From positions 2,759,275 through 2,823,274 of the forward strand of contig OW818690.1 in the NCBI GenBank assembly GCA_942493315.1: a DNA stretch of 64,000 bases, read 5' to 3'. Position 1 is the stretch's first letter; each line of letters begins with the position of its first letter. Positions 8,486 to 60,013 of this stretch are shown piece by piece. Position numbers and translations under genes: made by a program. The notes under the pieces are model-generated. The model saw only the letters and a program-made list of their open reading frames with translations. It was not told where the DNA came from and did no database searches. The DNA comes from an uncultured Bacteroidota bacterium. GTDB lineage: Bacteria; Bacteroidota; Bacteroidia; Bacteroidales; WCHB1-69.

Positions 8486-8601
8486 TTTTTTCGAAAAGTT
8501 TAGTTAAATTAAAGTTATGATTTTCAAATGGTTATATTATTTTTAAATAATTTACAAATATACAAAATTTTTCCAAACGAAAAGCTTAAAATCTATTAAA
8601 T

Positions 8602-8702
8602 AATTAGCAAATGTGATAATTAGCAAATGTGATAATTTGCTAATTTGCTAATTTACTAATTTGCTAATTTGCTAATTTGCTAATTCACTAATTTGCTAAT
8701 TC
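8602..8702. repeat. Octamer tandem array (TGCTAATT x ~9) preceded by 2 copies of a 16-mer containing its reverse complement
   Basis: Read directly. AATTAGCAAATGTGAT occurs twice, followed by TGCTAATT units. Lies 117-217 nt upstream of the gyrA start on the minus strand. Confidence 0.9.
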
Positions 8703-9174: not shown

Positions 9175-9354
9175 GGGCATTCCGGCACCATCCGACACAC
9201 GAGCATACCCTGGTGCCGTCGGGCTTGTTCCGGGGTCCGCTTCGCTCCCGTACTTCGCTGCACTTCACTTAGGATCATTAGTTTCATCTCGCTAACTCAT
9301 CACGGCGTTCGTTCCAGCTCGTACCACCTCCGGTGCCCTCCACATCCCTAATGC
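9175..9354 (+). repeat. GC-rich structured element, copy D (most divergent)
   Basis: Starts GGGCATTCC and ends CCCTAATGC like the other copies. Internal stem CGGCACCA...TGGTGCCG. GC-rich in an AT-rich context. Track ORF 9104-9295 lies inside it and is judged spurious. Confidence 0.75.
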
Positions 9355-9516: not shown

Positions 9517-9562
9517 TCGAGCATTCGAGCATTCCGAGCATTCGAGCAACCGAGCATTCGAA
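9517..9562. repeat. Short tandem repeat (GAGCATTC-type units)
   Basis: cgagcattcgagcattccgagcattcgagcaaccgagcattcg, read directly. Confidence 0.8.
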
Positions 9563-12602: not shown

Positions 12603-12730
12603 GACTACGGACTACGGACTACGGACTACAGACTACGGACTACAGACTACGGACTACAGACTACGGACTACAGACTACAGACTACGGACTACAGACTACA
12701 GACTACGGACTACAGACTACGGACTACAGA
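12603..12730. repeat. Heptamer tandem array GACTACG/GACTACA (~18 units)
   Basis: Read directly. Starts 2 nt after the stop codon of the EEP gene. Confidence 0.95.
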
Positions 12731-12744
12731 CATTTATCTTTAAT

Positions 12745-12938
12745 CACCTGTCCCCTGTCCCCTGTCACCTGTTACCTGTTACCTGTTACCTGTTACCTGT
12801 CACCTGTTACCTGTTACCTGTTACCTGTTACCTGTCACCTGTCCCCTGTCACCTGTTACCTGTTACCTGTCCCCTGTCACCTGTCCCCTGTCACCTGTTA
12901 CCTGTTACCTGTCCCCTGTTACCTGTCACCTGTCCCCT
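12745..12938. repeat. Heptamer tandem array CCTGTCA/CCTGTTA/CCTGTCC (~27 units)
   Basis: Read directly. Ends 2 nt before the stop codon (12941-12943) of the minus-strand 1404-aa gene. Confidence 0.95.
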
Positions 12939-17155: not shown

Positions 17156-17198
17156 TGAACAACAATTTTTTAGTAAAAAGATTGCAAAGATACGAAAT

Positions 17199-17288
17199 AA
17201 TGTGCTAATGTGCTAATGTGCTAATGTGCTAATGTGTTAATGTGCTAATGTGCTAATGTGCTAATGTGACAATGTGATAATGTAATAA
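17199..17288. repeat. Octamer tandem array AATGTGCT (~11 units)
   Basis: Read directly. Lies 44-133 nt upstream of the start of the glycogen fusion gene (minus strand). Shares the ATTAGCA core with the array upstream of gyrA. Confidence 0.9.
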
Positions 17289-17375
17289 TTTGCTAATTTT
17301 CTCAATGTGCTCTTTAGCTTGCTAATGTAAAAATTAATAAGAGGATACATTATATTGTATTTCTTTATGTAAATT

Positions 17376-23014: not shown

Positions 23015-23591
23015 AAAGAGAATCAACATTGCCATTTTGGAAAATGCTTCCATTGTAAGTGAAGGGATTCAAAGTTTGCTTCAAAAATCACATTTGTATA
23101 TCAAACCGATATGGATCAAAGATATTGACAATTTGAATTTTCATATAGAACGTTTAAAAATTGACATGATTATCATCAATCCAAACTTGGTAATCAATAG
23201 GTTCAAGTTTTTTACACAATTAAAAAACAACAATCCTCAGGTTAAATGGTTAGGGTTAACTTACAATCTGATTGAAAGGGAGATACAGCCTTTGTTTGAT
23301 GATGTTATTCAAATCGATGATGCTTATGAAAATATCACACGTAAGATCGATTATTTCATTGAAAATACGCAAAATGAGGAGACCACTGTATTAACAGATC
23401 GGGAGCAAAATGTATTAAAAGAGATTATCAAGGGATTATCAAATAAAGAGATAGCAGTTCGGTTGAATATCAGTATCCATACTGTAATGAGTCATCGTAA
23501 AAATATATACCAGAAAACCGATATCAAAAGTCAGGCCGGATTAACGGTTTATGCACTGACACACAATATTGTTTCGATAGAATCTCTATAG
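23007..23591 (+). CDS. LuxR-family transcription regulator with an atypical receiver-like N-terminal domain
   Basis: C-terminal LuxR HTH (LTDREQNVLKEIIKGLSNKEIAVRLNISIHTVMSHRKNIYQK). The ATG overlaps the upstream stop (ATGGATAA). The N-terminal domain lacks the usual DD pocket and phospho-Asp (ILEN, IIINPN). Confidence 0.75.
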   Translation: MDKKRINIAILENASIVSEGIQSLLQKSHLYIKPIWIKDIDNLNFHIERLKIDMIIINPNLVINRFKFFTQLKNNNPQVKWLGLTYNLIEREIQPLFDDVIQIDDAYENITRKIDYFIENTQNEETTVLTDREQNVLKEIIKGLSNKEIAVRLNISIHTVMSHRKNIYQKTDIKSQAGLTVYALTHNIVSIESL

Positions 23592-23622
23592 GGCTAAGGG
23601 CGAAGGGCGAAGGGCGAAGGGG
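23591..23622. repeat. Heptamer tandem repeat AGGGCGA/AGGGCTA
   Basis: gggctaagggcgaagggcgaagggcgaaggggg, starting right after the LuxR-family gene stop. Confidence 0.85.
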
Positions 23623-28338: not shown

Positions 28339-28460
28339 TCAGCTTTCAGCTATCAGTTTTCAGCTATCAGTTTTCAGCTTTCAGTTTTCTAATGGTCAAC
28401 CAAATTCAGGCATTGACACATTATTCATTATTCATTATTCATTATTCATTATTCATTAAT
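28339..28460. repeat. Two heptamer arrays: CAGCTTT/CAGCTAT/CAGTTTT (28339-28389) and TTATTCA (28420-28460)
   Basis: Read directly. The CAGCTAT/CAGTTTT units recur at 54609-54635, and the reverse complement of TTATTCA recurs at 29070-29100. Confidence 0.9.
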
Positions 28461-28492
28461 TTATTATCTTTGCAATCTAAAAATTAGAAATT

Positions 28493-29018: not shown

Positions 29019-29102
29019 AGACTACGGACTACGGACTACGGACTACGGACTACGGACAACGGACGAAAAATGAATAATGAAAAATGAATAATGGGAAATG
29101 AG
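29019..29102. repeat. Heptamer arrays GACTACG (x6, ending GGACAAC) followed by TGAATAA/TGAAAAA units
   Basis: Read directly. Same GACTACG unit as at 12603-12730. Confidence 0.9.
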
Positions 29103-33711: not shown

Positions 33712-35085
33712 ATGATTATAAATAGTATCATCAGGTTTTTTCATACAGATAATGAACTAACCATCAATAAATTAGGCAAATTTACTAAAAAACATATTGC
33801 ATCGCAATTGGAAGGTGGTCAAATTTTTCCACCTAAGGTTATTTTAGAGTTTGAATATAATGAAGATATCAATGGGTTTTCGTTTGTTGATAAAATATCT
33901 CAATGGGAGTCACTTCGGTTATTAGATGCTGATGATCAAGTTACTAAATGGGTAAAAGAATTAAAAAACGCCATTCAAAATAACAAAAGTGTTAGTTTTG
34001 AGAATTTTGGAACATTCTATATGAATCCAACCGGGGTTATTTGTTTTGATTCTGATATCATCAAGGAATTGAACAGTGAATATTACGGTATGGCACCGGT
34101 TCCGTTGAATAAGACGGGAGACGGGAGACAGGAGACGGGAGACGGGGGAATTCAGATTACGGACAACGGACTACAGACTATGGACGAGGGTATTCAGACT
34201 GCGGACAACGGACTACAGACTACGGACGAGGGTATTCAGACTGCGGACAACGGACTACAGACTACGGACGGGGGACTGGAGACTGGAGACGAGGGAGTAC
34301 AGACTGCGGACAACGGACTACAGACTACGGACGAGAGACTGGAGACGGGAGACGGGAGACAGGAGATTGGAGACGGGAGACAGGAGACGGGAGACGGGAG
34401 ACAGGAGACGGGAGACGGGAGACGTGAGATTGAGGACGACGGACTACAGACTACGGAAGAGGTTGAGGAAGAAGAAAAAGAAGAGGTTTTTATGCCGGTT
34501 AAAAAGAGAAAAAATAGATGGTTGGAGAGGCTCATTTTTATTTTGATTATTTTGGGATCAATCGGATTGGTTGCTTATCTTTTTAGATCTGATATAAAAA
34601 AATTCTATGATCAAAAATTTAATAAAAATAATCAGGTGGAAACCCCTACCCCTCAAGCTGTTGCGGTTGATACAAATATGGATGAATATATTGACTATGA
34701 AGCAGATTCTTTAGAAAATTCAAACTCTGCTACTAATACTTCAGAAGAGATTACTAATCCAACAGTTTCTAAAGTTGAGACAACAAAAAATTCAAATAAT
34801 TCCAATACAACAACAAAACCTGTTCAAATTGAAACAAATCAAAATGGAAGTAAAGATATTTCCTCCATTTCATTTGAAAAAGGGAAATTTTATGTTATTG
34901 CAGGTAGCTTTGGTAAAAAAAGTGATGCGATACAACATATCAAAGACAAAAAGTTAACACAATACAATCCTGTTCTTCTGGTTGGAGATTCAAGAGTCAG
35001 AGTTTGTATTGGAACCTATAAAACAGAAGCTGAAGCAACTGCTTTTGCTAAAAAAATTGATCAATCCTTTTGGGTATTAAAATAG
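33712..35085 (+). CDS. HU-like N-terminal domain / TM / SPOR-domain protein with an internal repeat-encoded low-complexity region
   Basis: C-terminal SPOR-like domain (GKFYVIAGSFGKKSDAIQHI...VRVCIGTYKTEAEATAFAKKI). Central TM segment (LIFILIILGSIGLVAYL). The Gly/Asp/Thr/Gln-rich region is encoded by heptamer repeats. Confidence 0.7.
   Translation: MIINSIIRFFHTDNELTINKLGKFTKKHIASQLEGGQIFPPKVILEFEYNEDINGFSFVDKISQWESLRLLDADDQVTKWVKELKNAIQNNKSVSFENFGTFYMNPTGVICFDSDIIKELNSEYYGMAPVPLNKTGDGRQETGDGGIQITDNGLQTMDEGIQTADNGLQTTDEGIQTADNGLQTTDGGLETGDEGVQTADNGLQTTDERLETGDGRQEIGDGRQETGDGRQETGDGRREIEDDGLQTTEEVEEEEKEEVFMPVKKRKNRWLERLIFILIILGSIGLVAYLFRSDIKKFYDQKFNKNNQVETPTPQAVAVDTNMDEYIDYEADSLENSNSATNTSEEITNPTVSKVETTKNSNNSNTTTKPVQIETNQNGSKDISSISFEKGKFYVIAGSFGKKSDAIQHIKDKKLTQYNPVLLVGDSRVRVCIGTYKTEAEATAFAKKIDQSFWVLK
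34113..34456 (+). repeat. Heptamer tandem repeats (GGAGACG, GGACTAC, AGACTAC and others) embedded in frame within a CDS
   Basis: Read directly. The units match the intergenic arrays at 12603 and 29019. The translation shows 7-aa periodic strings (GDGRQET, DNGLQTT). Confidence 0.9.
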
Positions 35086-38771: not shown

Positions 38772-38981
38772 GCATTAGGGCGAAGGCCAGGTACCCCGCA
38801 AGTTGAGCTGCTTAGGGCCTGACGGATCGGGCAGAGCGACGAAGGAGCTACTGCCCGGCCGATCAGACCCTTGCAGCGAAACGAGGAGTACAGGCCGGAG
38901 ACCGACCCTTTGGCCAGCGACGCGACTATTATTCATATTGGTCTGGATTTTTATTGAGCGCAGCCAAAGGGGAATGCCCTA
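38772..38981 (-). repeat. GC-rich structured element, copy C (reverse orientation)
   Basis: The reverse complement aligns along its length with copy A (47564-47770). It has the same CCTTTGGC...GCCAAAGG stem and a compensated CGGGCAG...CTGCCCG hairpin. Confidence 0.85.
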
Positions 38982-47563: not shown

Positions 47564-47770
47564 GGGCATTCCCCTTTGGCTGCGCTCAACCAAACCCCCA
47601 CCCCAACGAACAGAAACACCGTCGCTTGCCAAAGGGTCGGTCTCCGGCCTGTACTCCTCGCAGTTCCGCCAAGTGTTGCATCGGCCCGGCAGGAGCTCCT
47701 CCGTCGCTCTGCCGGTCTCGGCACCACTAAGCGTCCCTGCTTGCGGGGTACCTGGCCTCCGCCCTAATGC
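47564..47770 (+). repeat. GC-rich structured element, copy A
   Basis: GGGCATTCC...CCGCCCTAATGC. Stems CCTTTGGC/GCCAAAGG and CCGGCAG/CTGCCGG. Track ORF 47576-47767 lies entirely within it and is judged spurious. Confidence 0.85.
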
Positions 47771-52313: not shown

Positions 52314-54209
52314 TCAGACACAACTAGGCAACGTGAAGTAAAATGTTGACCCTACCCCTTCTTCACTTTCTATCCAAATTCTGCCCCCATATTGTTCAAT
52401 AAATTCTTTACAGAGTATTAATCCTAAACCTGTTCCTTTTTCGTTTTGTGTTCCTTTAACGGTGAAATTTTCTTCAATTTTGAACATCCTTAACTGATCA
52501 GCTTTACTGATGCCTATACCAGTATCCCTAACCAAAAGAACAAGTTCATTGTCCAGTTTTTCTGTCAAAATGGTTATTTTACCTCCCGGATTAGTAAATT
52601 TTAGGGCATTCGAAATCAAATTTCGTAATATGGTGCCCATCATTGATTGATCTGCATGAATAGTAATTTCTTGATCTATTGTATTTATAATCTGAATTGA
52701 TTTTTGAGATGCTGCATCATTCAATAATAGAATGGTTTCAGTTAAAAGTTCATTTAGTGAAAAATCAATAGCAATAAACTCCATTTTTCCGGTTTGTAAT
52801 CGGGCCCAATCCAAAAGATTTGTCAATAAATCAAAAGTCCTTTGTGATGAGTTTTGGATGATAACGGCATATTCTTCCATATTTTCATAATTTTTATCCC
52901 GGATCTGTTCAGTTAATAGTTCACTAAACCCCATAATGGCATTAAATGGACTTCTAAGATCGTGGGCAATAATGGAAAAAAATTTATCTTTCGTATTGTT
53001 CAGATGATTTAATTTTAGGTTTAATTCTGATATCTCTTCCGTTTTATGCATCAATTGAGTATTTGTCCTAGATTTTAATCTATAGAATGAATACAACACT
53101 ATGGAAACTATAATCATTAAAATAGCAATGAAAATAGCTATTTTAGTATTTATCTTAGATATCCGTATCTCACTTTCTTTTTTTAAATTCAATTCCTTTA
53201 GTTGATGATCATATTCATGTTTTGCTTCAATATAAGCAATTGATTTTATGTTACTTTCGTTTCGCATTGTATCTGATAATTCAAAGAATTTGGTTCTGTA
53301 TTTCAATGCATTTTCATAATCTTTAATACTCAGATATGCTTTTGCAATCAGATCAGTTGCTTCCAAAACAATGTATCTACTTCCAATCGATTCTCCGATT
53401 TTATTCGCTTTTTGGGCAAAATTCAATGCATCAGAATAGTTTTTGATATTCATCAAAAAATCAGCATATTGGTTGTATGCCATAGCCGTTAAATTCGGAT
53501 TTTCAAGTTTTTGGAATATTTTTATACTTTCTTGAATTTGGATTTGAGCACTATCTAATTTATTGAGTTTAATAAAACATTTTCCTATAGATAAATAATT
53601 ATATCCCATTAACATTAAGTTATTTTCACTTTTCGCAAAATAATAACTTTTGTAATGATTCTCAATGGATTTATTGAAATCACCATTTTCAAATTCAATT
53701 AATGCCAGATTGTGTAATAATCGGGACATCTCTGTGTTATTTTTTATCTTGTTTGCAATTTCTAAACCTTGCAGTATATAACTTTTTGCCTTTGAAAATT
53801 GATTTCTGGCATAATAAACCAAACCAATATTATTATACGTTTTAGAAAGTAAAATGGGTTCGTTTAATTCTTTAAATATCGATATGGCTTTCAGATTATT
53901 ATCCAATGAAGCATCATAAATACCCATTCGGTAATAATTGATTCCTAATGCTTTATGTGCTTCTCCAATTCCCAACTTGTAATTTAATTTCTTTGCTAAG
54001 GCTAATGCATTATTGGCATAATACAATCCTTTTCCGGTATCAAAATCTTTTAATTCATCAGCTAATCTATTCATTAAATTAACTTTAGCTGTATCATCAG
54101 CCATAGTTTTAATTTTGATAGTATCGATCAATACATCAGCATTTGCATCAAAACAGATCAAGATTGCTATTACAGTAAAAAAAACAAATAATTTTCTTTT
54201 AAATTTCAT
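52314..54209 (-). CDS. TPR-repeat sensor histidine kinase
   Basis: N-terminal signal/TM, multiple TPR units and a TM segment. HisKA H-box FFSIIAHDLRSPFNAI. HATPase N/G boxes (NLISNALKFT, DTGIGI, GTGLGL). ATG 54209 is preferred to the TTG at 54221. Confidence 0.85.
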   Translation of the reverse strand: MKFKRKLFVFFTVIAILICFDANADVLIDTIKIKTMADDTAKVNLMNRLADELKDFDTGKGLYYANNALALAKKLNYKLGIGEAHKALGINYYRMGIYDASLDNNLKAISIFKELNEPILLSKTYNNIGLVYYARNQFSKAKSYILQGLEIANKIKNNTEMSRLLHNLALIEFENGDFNKSIENHYKSYYFAKSENNLMLMGYNYLSIGKCFIKLNKLDSAQIQIQESIKIFQKLENPNLTAMAYNQYADFLMNIKNYSDALNFAQKANKIGESIGSRYIVLEATDLIAKAYLSIKDYENALKYRTKFFELSDTMRNESNIKSIAYIEAKHEYDHQLKELNLKKESEIRISKINTKIAIFIAILMIIVSIVLYSFYRLKSRTNTQLMHKTEEISELNLKLNHLNNTKDKFFSIIAHDLRSPFNAIMGFSELLTEQIRDKNYENMEEYAVIIQNSSQRTFDLLTNLLDWARLQTGKMEFIAIDFSLNELLTETILLLNDAASQKSIQIINTIDQEITIHADQSMMGTILRNLISNALKFTNPGGKITILTEKLDNELVLLVRDTGIGISKADQLRMFKIEENFTVKGTQNEKGTGLGLILCKEFIEQYGGRIWIESEEGVGSTFYFTLPSCV

Positions 54210-54280
54210 TTGTTGTATCAATTTATGGATGCAAATATACCAAATAATTTATGAATATATTAAAAGTAAATATTTTTTTA

Positions 54281-54341
54281 GGTTTTGGGTTTTGGGTTAT
54301 GAGTTTTGGGTCTTGGGTTTTGGGTCTTGGGTTTTGGGTTA
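54281..54341. repeat. Heptamer array GGTTTTG/GGTCTTG (~9 units)
   Basis: Read directly. Its reverse complement (CCCAAGACCCAAAACCC) occurs at 57952-57969 on the other side of the island. Confidence 0.9.
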
Positions 54342-54387
54342 TTGCATAAAAAATTAATATCTAAAACCTTAAAACTAATATCTTTTT

Positions 54388-54567
54388 GGGCATTCCGGCA
54401 CCATCCCACCCACTTTCCTACCCTGCTGCCGTCGGTCTCCGGCCTGTACTCCTCGCAGTACCGCCAAGTGTTGCATCGGCCCGGCAGTAGCTCCCAAGGT
54501 CGCTCTGCCGGTCTCGTGCACCACTAGGCGTCCCTGCTTGCGGGGTACCTGACCTCCGCCCTAATGC
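54388..54567 (+). repeat. GC-rich structured element, copy B
   Basis: GGGCATTCCGGCA...TGCCGTCGGTCTCCGGCCTGTACTCCTCGCAG...CCGGCAG-TAGCTCCCAAGGTCGCT-CTGCCGG...CCGCCCTAATGC. Confidence 0.85.
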
Positions 54568-54571
54568 TTCT

Positions 54572-54692
54572 CGGGCTCAGGGCTCAGGGCGAAAGGCCAA
54601 GGGCTATCAGCTATCAGTTTTCAGCTATCAGTTTTGCATTTTGCTTATTTAGTGGCTGTTGTCTGTGGTCTGTAGTCCGTAGACCGTTGTCC
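54572..54692. repeat. Mixed short tandem repeats (GGGCTCA, CAGCTAT/CAGTTTT, and the complement of GACTACR)
   Basis: Read directly. Track ORF 54564-54824 is a translation of repeats and is judged spurious. Confidence 0.8.
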
Positions 54693-54700
54693 AAAATTGA

Positions 54701-54930
54701 GGAACGTTATATTTGTAGCAAATCAACCTCCGACAACTCCAACCCGCTCCGTAGGAGCGTTATATTTGTAGCCAATCAACCTCCGACAAAACCACTTCGC
54801 TCCAGCGGAGCGTTATATTTGTAGCCAAACAAATACCCGACAAAACCACTTCGCTCCAGCGGAGCGTTATATTTGTAGGCAAACGATTACCCGACAAAAC
54901 GATCCCGCTCCAGCGGAGCGTTATATTTGT
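54701..54930 (-). repeat. REP-like 53-54 bp hairpin units, ~4 copies, inverted relative to the downstream array
   Basis: Four CGCTCC-N3/4-GGAGCG hairpins, each followed by TTATATTTGTAG. The reverse complement matches the CAAATATAACGCTCCGCTGGAGCG units at 57170-57600. Confidence 0.9.
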
Positions 54931-54972
54931 TTTTTTTATTTCAAAAATTATGAATAATTAAAATAATTTCAC

Positions 54973-54980
54973 TATTTTTG
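54973..54980 (+). promoter_or_regulatory. -7 promoter box TATTTTTG upstream of the Y1 transposase gene
   Basis: TAnnTTTG, 26 nt before ATG 55006. Confidence 0.45.
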
Positions 54981-55005
54981 CTTCACTCTCTTAAAACTAA
55001 TTATT

Positions 55006-55476
55006 ATGGCTAACACTTACTCTCAATGCTATTTTCACCTTGTTTTTTCTCCTAACATTTCAAAATCATTAATTGATACATCTTGGAGCAATAATCTAGA
55101 AATTTTCATTACATCAATTGTTCAGGAAAATGTACATAAAATGATTGCCATTAAATGTATGCCTGATCATGTTCATATCTTTTTTGGATATAATTTGAAT
55201 CAAAAAATACCTGATTTGGTTAATGTCATTAAAATGACTTCTTCAAAATGGTTGAAAGAACAAAATTTTTGTAAAAACTCATTTAATTGGCAAAATGGGT
55301 ATGGTGCTTTTACTCATGTAAAATCTTCTGTTAATGATGTTTATAATTACATTATGAATCAAGAAAATCACCATAAAAAAATAAGTTTTAAAGAAGAATT
55401 TTTATCATTTTTAAAAAGAAATGAAATTGATTATCACGATGATTATTTATTCCATTTTTTAGACCCTAAGTTTTAA
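55006..55476 (+). CDS. IS200/IS605-type Y1 (HUH) transposase, REP-associated (RAYT-like)
   Basis: HUH motif in MPDHVHIFF. WQNGYGAFT. C-terminal catalytic Tyr helix SSVNDVYNYIMNQENHH (Y-I-x-N-Q). 156 aa. No tnpB partner. Flanked by inverted hairpin repeats. Confidence 0.85.
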   Translation: MANTYSQCYFHLVFSPNISKSLIDTSWSNNLEIFITSIVQENVHKMIAIKCMPDHVHIFFGYNLNQKIPDLVNVIKMTSSKWLKEQNFCKNSFNWQNGYGAFTHVKSSVNDVYNYIMNQENHHKKISFKEEFLSFLKRNEIDYHDDYLFHFLDPKF

Positions 55477-55485
55477 TTCCAAAAA

Positions 55486-57635
55486 CCAATTTAACGCTCC
55501 GATGGAGCGGGTTCGTTTTGTCCGTTATTTGTTTGCTACCAATTTAACGCTCCGATGGAGCGGGTTCGTTTTGTCCGTTATTTGTTTGCTACCAATTTAA
55601 CGCTCCGCTGGAGCGGGTTCGTGTCGCCGGTTATTCGTTTGCTACCAATATAACGCTCCGCTGGAGCGGGTTCGTGTCGTCCGTTATTTGTTTGCTACCA
55701 ATATAACGCTCCGATGGAGCGGGTTCGTTTTGTCCGTTATTCGTTCGCTACAAATATAACGCTCCGCTGGAGCGGGTTCGTGTCGACCGTTATTCGTTCG
55801 CTACCAATTTAACGCTCCGCTGGAGCGGGTTCGTTTTGTCCGTTATTTGTTTGCTACCAATTTAACGCTCCGATGGAGCGGGTTCGTTTCGCCTGTTATT
55901 TGTTTGCTACCAATTTAACGCTCCGCTGGAGCGGGTTCGTTTTGTCCGTTATTTGTTTGCTACCAATTTAACGCTCCGTTGGAGCGGGTTCGTGTCGCCG
56001 GTTATTCGTTTGCTACCAATATAACGCTCCGCTGGAGCGGGTTCGTGTCGCCGGTTATTCGTTCGCTACCAATTTAACGCTCCGCTGGAGCGGGTTCGTT
56101 TCGCCGGTTATTCGTTCGCTACCAATTTAACGCTCCGCTGGAGCGGGTTCGTTTTGTCCGTTATTTGTTTGCTACCAATTTAACGCTCCGTTGGAGCGGG
56201 TTCGTGTCGCCGGTTATTCGTTCGCTACCAATATAACGCTCCGCTGGAGCGGGTTCGTTTTGTCCGTTATTCGTTCGCTACAAATTTAACGCTCCGATGG
56301 AGCGGGTTCGTTTTGTCCGTTATTTGTTTGCTACCAATTTAACGCTCCGCTGGAGCGGGTTCGTGTCGCCGGTTATTCGTTTGCTACCAATTTAACGCTC
56401 CGATGGAGCGGGTTCGTTTTGTCCGTTATTTGTTTGCTACCAATTTAACGCTCCGATGGAGCGGGTTCGTTTCGCCTGTTATTTGTTTGCTACCAATTTA
56501 ACGCTCCGCTGGAGCGGGTTCGTTTCGCCGGTTATTCGTTCGCTACCAATTTAACGCTCCGCTGGAGCGGGTTCGTTTCGCCGGTTATTCGTTCGCTACC
56601 AATTTAACGCTCCGCTGGAGCGGGTTCGTTTTGTCCGTTATTTGTTTGCTACCAATTTAACGCTCCGATGGAGCGGGTTCGTTTTGTCCGTTATTTGTTT
56701 GCTACCAATTTAACGCTCCGATGGAGCGGGTTCGTGTCGCCGGTTATTCGTTTGCTACCAATTTAACGCTCAGATGGAGCGGGTTCGTGTCGCCGGTTAT
56801 TCGTTCGCTACCAATTTAACGCTCAGATGGAGCGGGTTCGTTTCGCCGGTTATTCGTTTGCTACCAATATAACGCTCCGCTGGAGCGGGTTCGTGTCGTC
56901 CGTTATTTGTTTGCTACCAATTTAACGCTCCGCTGGAGCGGGTTCGTGTCGTCCGTTATTTGTTTGCTACCAATTTAACGCTCAGATGGAGCGGGTTCGT
57001 TTTGTCCGTTATTCGTTCGTTACCAATATAACGCTCAGATGGAGCGGGTTCGTTTTGTTCGTTATTCGTTCGCTACCAATTTAACGCTCCGCTGGAGCGG
57101 GTTCGTTTTGTCCGTTATTCGTTCGCTACCAATTTAACGCTCCGCTGGAGCGGGTTCGTTTTGTCCGTTATTCGTTCGCTACAAATATAACGCTCCGCTG
57201 GAGCGGGTTCGTTTCGCAGGTTATTCGTTTGCTACCAATATAACGCTCCGCTGGAGCGGGTTCGTGTCGTCCGTTATTCGTTTGCTACAAATATAACGCT
57301 CCGCTGGAGCGAGTATGTTTTGTCCGTTATTCGTTTGCTACAAATATAACGCTCCGCTGGAGCGAGTATGTTTTGTCCGTTATTCGTTTGCTACAAATAT
57401 AACGCTCCGCTTGAGCGGGTTCGTGTCGTCCGTTATTCGTTTGCTACAAATATAACGCTCCGCTGGAGCGAGTATGTTTTGTCCGTTATTCGTTTGCTAC
57501 AAATATAACGCTCCGCTGGAGCGAGTATGTTTTGTCCGTTATTCGTTTGCTACAAATATAACGCTCCGCTGGAGCGAGTATGTTTTGTCCGTTATTCGTT
57601 TGCTACAAATATAACGCTCCGATATAGAGGGTTAC
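55486..57635 (+). repeat. Tandem array of ~40 REP-like 53-bp hairpin units
   Basis: The period is exactly 53 bp by counting (ACCAATTTAACGCTCCGCTGGAGCGGGTTCGTTTTGTCCGTTATTTGTTTGCT). Each unit has a CGCTCC-N4-GGAGCG hairpin. There are several unit subtypes. The last 7 or so units include five copies of a distinct GAGCGAGTATG variant, interrupted by one GGGTTCGTG-type unit. Confidence 0.97.
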
Positions 57636-57711
57636 ATCGAACTTCTAATATCTAACTTCTCCAGTCACCAGTCTCTCGTCCCTTGTCCTAAACAAAACCG
57701 CAGGTTTTGTT

Positions 57712-57874
57712 GCGTTAGGACGGAGCCGAGAAAGCCCGCAAAGGAGGAAGCCGATGTGATGCAGGGAGGAAAAGAGCGAACTTGTGAGCTCCTTTTACGA
57801 CCATGCAGTCACACGGCTTACGACTGCGGACTTGAAGGCGGAGACCGACGGCGAGCCTGCGAGCCGGAACGCCC
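57712..57874 (-). repeat. GC-rich structured element, copy F (reverse orientation, divergent)
   Basis: The reverse complement begins GGGCGTTCCGGC and ends CCGTCCTAACGC, and shares GTCGGTCTCCG and the AGCTC...TTCGCT loop. Track ORF 57756-57938 lies on it and is judged spurious. Confidence 0.75.
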
Positions 57875-57880
57875 AAAAAA

Positions 57881-57969
57881 GACTAAAGACAAAGGACGAA
57901 GGACAAAAGTCAAATTAAAAATGAAAAATGAAAAATGAAAAATGAGAAAAACCCAAGACCCAAAACCCA
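57881..57969. repeat. Short tandem repeats (AAGGACR units, AAAAATG x4, CCCAAGA/CCCAAAA)
   Basis: Read directly. Confidence 0.85.
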
Positions 57970-58042
57970 GAAATTAATTCCGTGAATAGTGCGTATTGAT
58001 ATTTTTATATACTTAGATGGGGAATAATTCACCATTTTTTCG

Positions 58043-58050
58043 TAATTTTG
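58043..58050 (+). promoter_or_regulatory. -7 promoter box TAATTTTG upstream of thrS
   Basis: TAnnTTTG followed by CAAA, 26 nt before ATG 58076. Confidence 0.5.
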
Positions 58051-58075
58051 CAAACTTATTAAAATTATATACAAG

Positions 58076-60013
58076 ATGATAAATATTACACTACCTGACG
58101 GGTCAAAAAAGCAGTTTGAAAGCGGCGTTACTCCCTACCAAATTGCACTAAGTATTAGCGAAGGACTTGCTCGTAACGTTCTAGCAGCTAAAGTGGATGA
58201 TAAAGTTGTTTCTCTGAATTATGAGATCACAACCGATTGTAATTTTAAGCTGTTCACGTGGGAAAATCCTGAAGGTAAAGCAACCTACTGGCACTCATCA
58301 TCTCATATCATGGCCGCCGCTATCGAACAACTCTATCCCGGAGTTAAATTTGGTATCGGTCCTGACATCGAAAACGGATTCTATTACGATATAGATTTTA
58401 TGGACTATTCCATCTCTTCTGATGACTTCCCTAAAATTGAAGCAAAAATGATGGAGATCATCCAAACTAAAGCTCAATTCGAAAGAAAAGAGGTTACTAA
58501 AGCCGAAGCTATCGAATATTTTACTAAAAAAGGGGACGAATATAAACTGGAACTCATCAGCGCATTGGAAGATGGAACCATCACCTTCTATCAAACCGGT
58601 GATTTTACTGACTTATGTAGAGGACCACACTTATTCAACACAGCAAGCATTAAAGCGGTTAAGTTGTTGAATACTGCCGGTGCTTACTGGAGAGGCGACG
58701 AGAAAAGAAAACAGCTTACCCGTATCTACGGAATCTCTTTCCCTAAGAAAAAAGACTTAGATGATTATCTACTTATGCTTGAAGAAGCTAAGAAAAGAGA
58801 TCATAGAAAACTAGGTAAAGAAATGGAACTTTTCGCATTCTCACCTAAAGTGGGTATGGGTTTACCATTGTGGTTACCTCGTGGAACTCAATTGAGAGAT
58901 CGCTTAGAGCAATTCTTGAAGAAAATCCAGAAAAAATATGGATACCAACAAGTTATGTGTCCACATATCGGTGATGTAAACTTGTATAAAACATCCGGAC
59001 ACTACCAAAAATATGGTGCAGATTCATTCCATCCAATCACTACTCCTCAAGAAGGGGAAAGTTTTATGTTGAAACCTATGAACTGCCCTCACCACTGTGA
59101 AATCTACTCTGTTAAACCTAGATCTTACCGTGATCTTCCGATCAGAATCGCTGAATTCGGAACCGTTTACCGTTACGAACAAAGTGGTGAATTACATGGG
59201 TTGACAAGGGTTAGAGGTTTTACTCAGGATGATGCCCATATTTTCTGTACTCCTGATCAATTAAAAGATGAATTTTGTAAGGTTATCGATATCATCCTTT
59301 ACATCTTTAAAGTGTTGAATTTCGAAAACTTCACAGCTCAGATTTCATTAAGAGACCCTAATAACAAAGAAAAATACATCGGTTCTGACGAAAACTGGGA
59401 AAAAGCAGAAAGAGCGATCATCGAATCGGCTGCTGAAAGAGGCTTGAATACCACTACAGAAACAGGTGAAGCTGCTTTCTATGGTCCAAAATTGGACTTT
59501 ATGGTAAAAGATGCCTTAGGAAGAAAATGGCAGCTAGGAACTGTTCAGGTAGACTACAACCTTCCCGAACGTTTTGAATTGGAATATATTGATGCTGATC
59601 AACTAAAACGTCGTCCAATCATGATTCACAGAGCACCATTTGGTTCTATGGAACGTTTTGTGGCTGTTTTATTAGAGCATACTGCTGGTCGTTTCCCATT
59701 GTGGCTAACTCCTGAACAAGTGATTGTGCTTCCTATCAGTGAGAAATATCATGATTATGCTATGAAAGTGAAAGAGATCTTAGAAGAACAAGAGATTCGT
59801 ACTATTGTTGATGAGAGAGCTGAAAAAGCAGGTAAAAAGGTTCGTGATGCAGAAATGAAAAAGATACCATTTATGGTGATTGTAGGAGAAAAAGAGGAAA
59901 ATGATAGAACGGTATCAGTAAGAGAACACGGACAAGGAGACATGGGAACACTATCAATTAGCGATTTTGTAACGATGATCAATAAAAAAATTGCAACAGA
60001 ATTAGAATCATAA
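58076..60013 (+). CDS. thrS: Threonine--tRNA ligase
   Basis: TGS domain start ([10 protein letters not shown]...). Class II motifs ([32 protein letters not shown]). C-terminal anticodon-binding domain. Confidence 0.97.

Follow-up and report, generated by a model that had tools for sequence, protein, structure and literature searches.

How does a mirror-symmetric block of repeats come to surround a small transposase gene: as one mobile unit, by duplication and inversion, or by the accumulation of separate parts? This question is raised by a repeat-rich island of 3.7 kb in a 64-kb stretch of DNA (the window) from an uncultured Bacteroidota bacterium (contig OW818690.1). In the island, a gene for a Y1 (HUH) transposase is flanked in each arm, from the gene outward, by hairpin units, period-7 repeat fabric, a GC-rich element (copy B on the left, copy F on the right) and more period-7 fabric that ends in GGGTYTT heptamers. 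The original prediction, which was made by reading the sequence, held that these layers mirror one another, and all four are present where it placed them, each above chance. The arms mirror each other in order and orientation but differ in size: they carry 4 versus 40 hairpin units, and B and F are 70% identical.

We find that the island is a stepwise assemblage under an orientation rule, and not a compound or unit transposon. It is probably a REPtron-like locus of a new type, whose symmetry would come from strand-specific association and from exchange between its arms, and not from transposition of the whole. Comparison loci and contigs from relatives are designated by L-numbers (for example, L085 and L169).

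The Y1 gene and its inverted hairpin units

Each hairpin unit is a 6-bp GC hairpin followed by a spacer of approximately 9 to 10 nucleotides and then GTAG, and one unit occurs per approximately 53 bp. The right array (55485-57621, plus strand) has 40.3 units in a strict 53-bp register, for which Tandem Repeats Finder reports 92% matches and no indels; read in register, it comprises 40 units of GCTACCAATTTAACGCTCCGCTGGAGCGGGTTCG.... The left array (54701-54930, minus strand) has 4.3 units of 54 bp, which read CGCTCC-NNN-GGAGCG and then TTATATTTGTAGC on the plus strand, and is the right-array unit on the opposite strand. The arms are complementary at up to 80% over 128 nucleotides, and REP-like units are indeed opposed around the transposase gene, as had been claimed. 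A 23-nucleotide core of the unit occurs 41 times, always within the island, against 0 occurrences expected.

The normal number of units is 1 to 6, and the 40 units of the right array are an extreme expansion. They include 25 sequence variants, which stem from 16 polymorphic columns. Unit identity falls slightly with distance (from 0.92 to 0.89), and the distal end has a recently duplicated block. Both arrays stop distally at one unit position, after AACG[C/T]TCC, with the last unit cut within its hairpin (54701 and 57621). A solo unit in L175 starts at AACGCTCC, with the breakpoint reading TTGCTT|AACGCTCC, right after the expected position of CTACAAATA(T). The array ends and the start of this solo unit may be preferred break or cleavage points. 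A scan for terminator-like hairpins in the right array found 93 sites, versus 7.2 expected, with each unit bidirectional; a predicted side effect of the expansion is that approximately 40 such bidirectional hairpins separate the Y1 gene from thrS. We rejected a CRISPR reading of the 53-bp array, because the repetition extends over the entire 53-bp unit and variation is confined to 16 columns of simple polymorphism. No cas genes are found among the open reading frames (ORFs) that flank the island.

Inverted hairpin units are family-wide for this Y1 family: inverted hairpin-GTAG units of approximately 50 to 53 bp accompany relatives that span 36-90% identity. Metagenomic relatives of 38-57% identity have inverted and frequently iterated units on both sides of the gene, each a short GC hairpin with (T/G)GTAG 8 to 11 nucleotides after the stem. 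The stem sequence varies by lineage, with a unit spacing of approximately 50 to 53 bp and, in L113, at least five units on one side. Each flank in Paludibacter propionicigenes WB4 is a REPIN-like doublet of inverted unit pairs. Flanking units also occur on a Bernardetia plasmid, around a gene annotated as IS200/IS605 tnpA, and their tail (AATATTTGTAG) almost equals that of the window. In a pattern scan, units were on the plus strand to the left of the gene and on the minus strand to the right in most loci scanned. Elsewhere in 10 to 60 kb of the relatives' context, units are almost absent, with a few stray matches in L085 and L103.

The Y1 gene (55006-55476, plus strand) encodes a protein of 156 amino acids that matches Pfam Y1_Tnp (7e-24). 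The protein passes the cutoff of the NCBIfam IS200/IS605 transposase model NF033573 (61.5 bits; cutoff, 55) and fails that of the REP_Tyr_transpos model (26.4 bits; cutoff, 80). The nearest solved structures are ISDra2 and IS608 TnpA, which are IS200/IS605 TnpA proteins, and no TnpA(REP) structure was found among its matches in the Protein Data Bank. The catalytic HVH and tyrosine are present and are kept in relatives. The protein has the motifs DHVH, WQ (NWQ) and YIMNQENHH, the last in place of the class-2 Y motif YIxxNP, which it lacks. A length of approximately 148 amino acids and the motifs DH[IV]H, WQ and Y---Q--HH are the signature of TnpA(Y1) subclass 1.2 (PMC6006769). This subclass is low-copy, is found mostly in Cyanobacteria and Bacteroidetes, is without IS200-type ends and is listed as "REP: no" (Quentin et al. 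2018, PMC6006769). Because of these motifs and the NCBIfam scores, we assign the protein, as judged from its sequence, to subclass 1.2 of the IS200 family and not to the class-2 RAYTs. Of the label "RAYT" that the gene had been given, the Y1 HUH domain and the inverted palindromic flanks stand; the IS200-like sequence and the failed REP_Tyr_transpos model do not agree with it.

More than 400 homologues of the protein were found, mostly in Bacteroidales. Searches for exact matches to the Y1, ThrS and kinase proteins of the window found none of the three on record. The ratio of nonsynonymous to synonymous substitution rates is 0.12-0.23 against five relatives of 81-86% identity, and the protein is therefore maintained by selection. 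Upstream of the gene, TATTTTTG (54973-54980, plus strand; read by eye) is a candidate -7 promoter box that is kept in close relatives, and which we take to be of the Bacteroidetes type (consensus TAnnTTTG). The window has one copy of the gene. Relatives of 82-90% identity lie in differing contexts and are not identical copies, and the Y1 modules of relatives occupy unrelated gene neighborhoods. A DUF6261 gene adjoins the Y1 gene in Paludibacter WB4 (L167 3940-4671) and in a relative of 83% identity (L081 8229-8984). This adjacency may reflect conserved synteny, in which case some members of the family would be inherited vertically.

The GC-rich element, its polarity and its period-7 surroundings

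Five copies of the GC-rich element are present in the window: B (54388-54567, plus strand; GGGCATTCC...CCCTAATGC), F (57712-57874, minus strand) and copies at 9175-9354 (plus), 38772-38979 (minus) and 47564-47770 (plus). The last three are dispersed and all intergenic, and those at 38772 and 47564 are codirectional with their flanking genes. Other copies occur in L085, L087 and L120. Aligned globally, B and the reverse-complemented F have 112 identical columns of 163 and a score of 140, versus 62 +/- 7 for shuffled sequences and 34.5 in direct orientation, which upholds the claim that the two copies are homologous and inverted. They share GGGCRTTCCGGC, GCCGTCGGTCTCCG and CTCCGYCCTAAYGC in inverted orientation. 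A blastn search of the window with F found no match to B; the homology needed global alignment and a covariance model. This model (R1) scores B at 181.6 bits and F at 147.7 bits (both E<1e-32), with both copies belonging to its training set.

B has a fold z-score of -3.4. When seven copies are aligned, their common fold comprises a closing stem, a pair of small hairpins and one long hairpin. As modelled, the family has 46 pairs and covaries strongly. Compensatory (double) changes are found in 21 of 47 pairs, versus 1 to 6 when the partners are slid; the closing stem, for example, covaries as GCATT/AATGC, GCGTT/AACGC and GCGTG/CACGC. Paired cells amount to 92.9%, versus 36-45% with slid partners, and covariation to 0.43, versus 0.05-0.09, for a structure that was derived from the same sequences on which it was scored. 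G.U cells outnumber A.C cells 25 to 1, and because of this excess, one strand (GGGC to AATGC) carries the structure, namely plus for B and minus for F. A search of Rfam gave no gathering-threshold match to the element, and nothing relevant at E<=10 in 54200-58080. The element therefore appears, from sequence comparison, to be a new, previously undescribed structured family. It could be a non-autonomous single-stranded DNA element or a noncoding RNA. No conserved TAnnTTTG promoter box was found upstream of it, only a T-run, and the TTTTGGG heptamer unit is the junction of this T-run with GGGC at the element's 5' end.

B shares 92% identity with the dispersed copy at 47564-47770, 7 kb away, but only 70% with F, and F shares 85% with an element in L120; B and F represent different subfamilies. 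With the covariance model, the element was found only in a clade with Y1 proteins at least 74% identical to that of the window, and not in 610 kb of distant Y1 loci (33-57% relatives) and related Bacteroidales loci. Because of this absence, we regard the element as clade-specific and rejected it as a general feature of the Y1 family.

The same layer order recurs in relatives, two-sided in L085 and one-sided in L087, L120/L088 and L090. In L085, a long-read contig whose Y1 protein is 74% identical, the order is GC element (plus), 10-mer repeats, a 132-nucleotide inverted repeat (94%), a hairpin unit, the gene, two hairpin units and the mirror image. A second, inverted Y1 module lies 8 kb away in the same contig, and the two copies bracket yidC-parAB-dapB-lepB (L085 1-2176, 9508-10690, 10928-13239). 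One of the two module copies also contains a 472-bp tandem repeat, and an IS21-type element is inserted beside the other.

All 10 of the elements or fragments that lie beside Y1 modules (B and F of the window, four in L085, and one each in L087, L120, L088 and L090) have their 3' end toward the gene. In several cases, this 3' end is followed by a CAAAACC-NNN-GGTTTTG hairpin. GC elements are found within approximately 500 bp of about half of the Y1 flanks examined, versus approximately 1 per 20 kb elsewhere in the window; because the density near Y1 flanks exceeds this background, we consider the association real. Seven of approximately 11 distinct Y1 modules are adjoined by GC elements, and four (the L081 group, L091/L086, L092 and L116) are without one.

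Both GC-rich elements of the island are set in period-7 repeats. To the left of B are the outer heptamer array (54276-54340, plus strand), which Tandem Repeats Finder describes as (TTTTGGG)x9.3 and which includes a GGGTCTT variant, and an AT-rich spacer of 47 nucleotides in 7-nucleotide register (54341-54387, plus strand), which accompanies B in relatives. Between B and the left hairpin array are GGGCTCA, ATCAGCT/ATCAGTT and TGTNGTC units (54568-54700; lag-7 identity 0.63, z 9.6). On the right, junction segment J (57622-57711; lag-7 z 3.5) consists of inner period-7 fabric and a palindromic hairpin, AACAAAACC-GCA-GGTTTTGTT (57691-57711), and abuts the 3' end of F. J-type hairpins also follow GC elements in L169, L120 and L090. 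Beyond F are AAAGACN/AAGGACN and AAATGAA units in one continuous 7-nucleotide register (57875-57947; lag-7 identity 0.73, z 8.1), and then the right outer GGGTYTT heptamers (57948-57969, minus strand).

The outer heptamers are opposed as predicted: 54314-54335 matches 57969-57948 perfectly in inverted orientation over 22 nucleotides, with alternating GGGTCTT and GGGTTTT units. Tandem GGGTYTT occurs in the window solely at the two island ends, where 9 of 11 matches lie, versus 1.3 expected. All four flanks of B and F are period-7 (lag-7 identity 0.42-0.73, z 3.5-9.6), promoter-proximal controls are flat, and the 7-nucleotide register continues up to the GGGC start of each GC element. The blocks between the layers had been described as unrelated short tandem repeats. 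Their unit sequences do differ between the arms, but the blocks share one periodicity and belong to a common period-7 fabric.

Assembly of the island

The left neighbor of the island is a TPR-histidine-kinase gene (52314-54221, minus strand), and its right neighbor is thrS (58076-60013, plus strand). On the kinase side, L169 (kinase 85% identical) matches the window at 83.7% over 443 nucleotides, which comprise the kinase start, its promoter, GGGTTTT heptamers, the 47-nucleotide spacer and an intact B. Beyond B, this locus has a palindromic hairpin and then the promoter of an unrelated gene; hairpin units and a Y1 gene are absent from L169. L175 (kinase 85%; S41 peptidase and OmpA synteny as in the window) has no Y1 gene. 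Its layers are heptamers, a near-identical copy of the spacer, as in L169, and a B whose interior has been replaced, followed by a hairpin, heptamers, one solo hairpin unit without its CTACAAATA part, a further stretch of heptamers and then unique DNA. L176 (kinase 90%) has B eroded as in L175 and is without the Y1 gene and the GGGTTTT heptamers. In these two loci (L175 300-520, L176 1-195), 33 nucleotides of the 5' end and 23 nucleotides of the 3' end of B survive, and TGTGCTCG/ATTGCTCG 8-mers and CATTATT heptamers take the place of its long hairpin. A structured element can therefore be a site of tandem-repeat growth.

In L090, junction segment J and a B-type remnant lie downstream of an intact Y1 gene, whose orientation relative to B is opposite to that in the window. 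J, which is on the F side in the window, is 76.7% identical over 90 nucleotides to the L175 segment between its B copy and the solo hairpin. The outer heptamers of L169 and L175 are pure GGGTTTT, and the GGGTCTT variant is common to both window arrays, which points to recent exchange between the arms.

The empty-site comparison was informative on the kinase side, where L169, L175 and L176 are without the Y1 gene, and uninformative on the thrS side. Among 80 species representatives, the best ThrS was 80% identical, and none showed synteny of the kinase with thrS or a neighboring Y1 gene; in L001, an 85-bp gap precedes thrS, after a different gene. Because the outer layers occur without the core (L169, L175), and because of the B and F identities and the differing Y1 neighborhoods, we conclude that the layers have separate histories. 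B and the heptamers appear to be old residents of the kinase promoter gap, and F appears to be a separate acquisition; the Y1 core may come, go or flip. Among the origins that had been proposed for the island, successive insertions into a hairpin-prone locus fit these comparative data, in that kinase loci carry the outer layers without the core.

In the REPtron-like reading that we prefer, an intact, selected subclass-1.2 Y1 gene would be bracketed by inverted arrays of its own putative recognition units. Y1 systems act on one DNA strand, which would be why the units lie on opposite strands on either side of the gene throughout the family; by analogy, whatever associates with the units would owe its inverted orientation to this strand specificity. 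The GC elements and the Y1 core associate in one polarity, with the hairpin-bearing 3' end of the element (CAAAACC-NNN-GGTTTTG) facing the gene. Because the association has one polarity, two independently acquired elements would end up inverted. The polarity itself could come from strand- or hairpin-directed insertion of the core beside a resident element, or the reverse. The inverted arms would also exchange sequence, and the core may flip or relocate, as suggested by the shared GGGTCTT variant and the L090 orientation. The right array would be an in-register expansion that grew through unequal exchange, slippage or Y1-mediated reinsertion beside its own target, with analogy to known systems pointing to in-register exchange or reinsertion.

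Several points weigh against this reading. No hairpin units were found outside the island in 60 kb of the window, and a REP-like role in dissemination is therefore unproven. That the Y1 protein binds or cuts the hairpin units on one strand is presumed from the analogous proteins IS608 TnpA and E. coli TnpA(REP) (PMC3479197, PMC8266576). The polarity and the association come from approximately six to seven independent loci of one clade. The history of the right arm (F and thrS) is unsupported by comparison, because the relatives searched did not include one that has the thrS junction. Finally, L085 carries a duplicated module of at least 1.2 kb, GC element included (88.8% over 1203 nucleotides), which fits unit duplication better than stepwise assembly.

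Duplication of this kind bears on the alternative that the block from GC element to GC element is a single compound mobile element, with the GC elements as long terminal inverted repeats (TIRtron-like) and Y1 as the transposase. The two inverted L085 copies, whose homology begins approximately 25 nucleotides outside the 5' end of the GC element, speak for such an element, as does the constant polarity of GC elements beside 7 of the approximately 11 Y1 modules. However, the L085 core (657 nucleotides) is 98% identical and its outer layers 83-89%, and because of this difference, core and shell have different histories. Moreover, the kinase loci of L169 and L175 carry B but no Y1 gene, B and F come from different subfamilies, four modules have no GC element, and neither a target-site duplication nor a common outer terminus is visible. 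We consider a compound element unlikely. The broader suggestion that the entire island is mobilizable as one unit is not supported at this locus either: L169 and L175 keep the outer left layers without the core, the gene orientation is flipped in L090, no target-site duplication is visible at 54276 or 57969, and neither shared outer ends nor empty sites lacking the full block were found.

Duplication-inversion, which had also been proposed, would have built the island from a palindrome that formed at a hairpin-prone site, whose arms then diverged and whose arrays grew unequally. This history would explain the 22-nucleotide perfect inverted heptamer match with its derived GGGTCTT variant and the single unit position, inside the hairpin, at which both arrays end distally, and long inverted repeats of 93-94% do exist in L085. 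Yet the copy 7 kb away resembles B more closely (92%) than F does (70%), F is nearer to the element of another organism (85%), the intermediate repeat blocks differ between the arms, and at the orthologous locus the left layers are older than the core, all of which makes an inverted duplication in situ very doubtful. A single inversion with a breakpoint in the heptamer array was rejected as a source of the outer inverted heptamers, because B retains the 47-nucleotide spacer beside the left array, as in L169 and L175. Likewise, a single inversion was rejected for a flipped TTGTCCT block of L175, because the block order misfits.

Chance co-occurrence, by which a small vocabulary of heptamers and GC elements fills intergenic regions and yields a mirror order without any rule, draws on the period-7 arrays and GC elements throughout the window and on heptamer units that recur at unrelated loci, but is highly improbable in view of the uniform polarity (10 of 10), the enrichment of GC elements near Y1 flanks, the restriction of GGGTYTT tandems to the two island ends and the family-wide hairpin arrays.

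The wider repeat complement and known systems

The kinase gene and thrS each retain a short private upstream stretch outside the repeats, with TAnnTTTG boxes that we take to be of the Bacteroidetes type (54232-54239, minus strand, for the kinase; 58043-58050, plus strand, for thrS). For this reason, the repeat island proper is delimited as 54276-57969. The locus is a divergent-promoter gap that also gathers two other repeat types of the lineage: the structured GC-rich element of approximately 180 nucleotides and period-7 microsatellites. GC content is 40-50% in the island and approximately 33% in the AT-rich window. Neighboring ORFs encode the histidine kinase, an S41 peptidase, ThrS and Ffh. 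Small ORFs over the repeats (54115-54357, 54306-54527, 54564-54824, 57715-57876, 57756-57938 and 57910-58074) were judged to be artifacts of repeat sequence. A tRNA or tmRNA reading of the repeats was rejected; the window has no tRNA genes, and its sole Rfam match is a cobalamin riboswitch (RF00174, 40841-41024, 84 bits).

Further intergenic period-7 arrays are located at 12603-12934, 23590-23621, 28339-28467 and 29020-29101. They share a heptamer vocabulary (AGACTAC/GGACTAC, TCACCTG, AGGGCGA, TCAGCTT, CATTATT and GAAAAAT), some units of which recur in the island. Heptamers also recur at unrelated loci; for example, ATCAGCT is found at 28339 and 54603, and AAATGAA at 29065 and 57912. Another period-7 array (34112-34429) lies inside an ORF (33712-35085) as in-frame 21-nucleotide (7-amino-acid) repeats (GIQTADNGLQTTDE...), and the heptamer fabric has therefore entered a coding region as a low-complexity linker. 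Period-8 arrays at 8601-8701, 9517-9561 and 17198-17311 (TAATTTGC, TCGAGCAT and TAATGTGC) are related to the 8-mers inside element B of L175.

Period-7 tracts number 8 per 64 kb in the window (at a stricter threshold) and 5 per 166 kb around subclass-1.2 relatives of 33-57% identity. Control Bacteroidota loci have 2 per 1408 kb, which come from the two closest ThrS relatives, and loci of other Y1 classes have 0 per 184 kb; the enrichment around subclass-1.2 genes has p=2e-4. Heptamer repeats that remain unexplained have been described in Beggiatoaceae, Cyanobacteria and five Bacteroidetes, including Paludibacter WB4 and Flexibacter (Bernardetia) litoralis (MacGregor 2015, PMC4679880). Strain WB4 and the genus Bernardetia are also carriers of this Y1 subclass, and the phyletic ranges of subclass 1.2 and of heptamer repeats overlap (PMC6006769, PMC4679880). 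This association is a lead, and may simply reflect shared ancestry. A bolder proposal is that the subclass-1.2 Y1 protein drives the whole intergenic repeat ecosystem of the lineage, such that its action on single-stranded DNA would move GC elements as REPIN-like cargo and would seed period-7 arrays directly or via breaks. The enrichment, the overlap in range, the identity of TTTTGGG with the 5' junction of the element and the tandem repeats found in place of the B interior in L175 and L176 are compatible with this proposal, which we regard as a long shot.

REPtrons, reportedly treated by Nunvar in 2010, consist of a RAYT/TnpA(REP) gene with inverted REPs on either side (Bertels & Rainey 2011, PMC3116915; Di Nocera 2013, PMC3733652; Messing 2012, PMC3479197). 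The island resembles them in its single small Y1 HUH gene under purifying selection and its inverted short GC hairpins with GTAG, whose hairpin sequence co-varies with the protein lineage. It differs in that its protein belongs to class 1 (IS200-like subclass 1.2) and not class 2, and in that GTAG is 9 to 10 nucleotides from the stem, whereas it abuts the stem in known REPs. Also, its units are strung head to tail in long arrays with a fixed period of approximately 53 bp; in known REP clusters, head-to-tail dimers are uncommon (PMC3733652). In 60 kb, no dispersed units were found, and GTAG REPs were previously unreported in Bacteroidota. The REPIN-like doublets of Paludibacter are similar to REPINs and BIMEs, but the window arrays are one-directional, with 4 and 40 units, and have no alternating Y/Z-type units.

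The island agrees with subclass 1.2 (PMC6006769) in its DH[IV]H, WQ and Y---Q--HH motifs, a length of approximately 150 amino acids, low copy number and Bacteroidetes origin. However, no REPs or IS200-type ends are listed for that subclass, whereas the island and its relatives of 36-90% identity have inverted hairpin-GTAG units. Likeness to IS200/IS605 elements (IS608, ISDra2) lies in the closest structures, the NCBIfam match, the catalytic motifs and the use of subterminal hairpins as likely recognition sites. In contrast, the end hairpins of these insertion sequences are on the same strand, whereas the island has inverted, iterated units in place of a single left and right end, and has neither tnpB nor multi-copy identical elements. 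TIRtrons/TIRYTs have a Y1 gene bracketed by long inverted repeats that are unrelated to REPs, and some of these repeats are moderately abundant families (Di Nocera 2013, PMC3733652). The long inverted elements of the island differ from them in forming an outer layer beyond the hairpin units, in being structured (covariation and G.U bias) and in being able to stand alone at an orthologous site. Finally, the heptamer STRR repeats (MacGregor 2015, PMC4679880) are also intergenic period-7 arrays, with several unit types per genome and mixed-unit arrays; their agent and mechanism are unknown, and no published link to a Y1 protein was found in the literature searched.

Islands of this kind break short-read assemblies and produce spurious small ORFs, which matters for annotation. 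The right array is a natural 40-copy array of a presumed binding site, with a conserved period of approximately five helical turns, and is a ready substrate for biochemistry. The apparently new, covarying and strand-specific GC-rich element of approximately 180 nucleotides is tied to a Y1 gene both physically and directionally. The locus also gives a testable handle on the origin of heptamer tandem repeats, and the proposal that the Y1 protein drives them, if true, would supply a mechanism for the long-unexplained STRR-type heptamer repeats of Cyanobacteria, Bacteroidetes and Beggiatoaceae. For the Y1 family, the inverted hairpin-GTAG units would be the cognate units of a subclass that in 2018 had been listed without insertion-sequence ends or REPs, and they would extend the REPtron architecture to class-1 proteins and to Bacteroidota.

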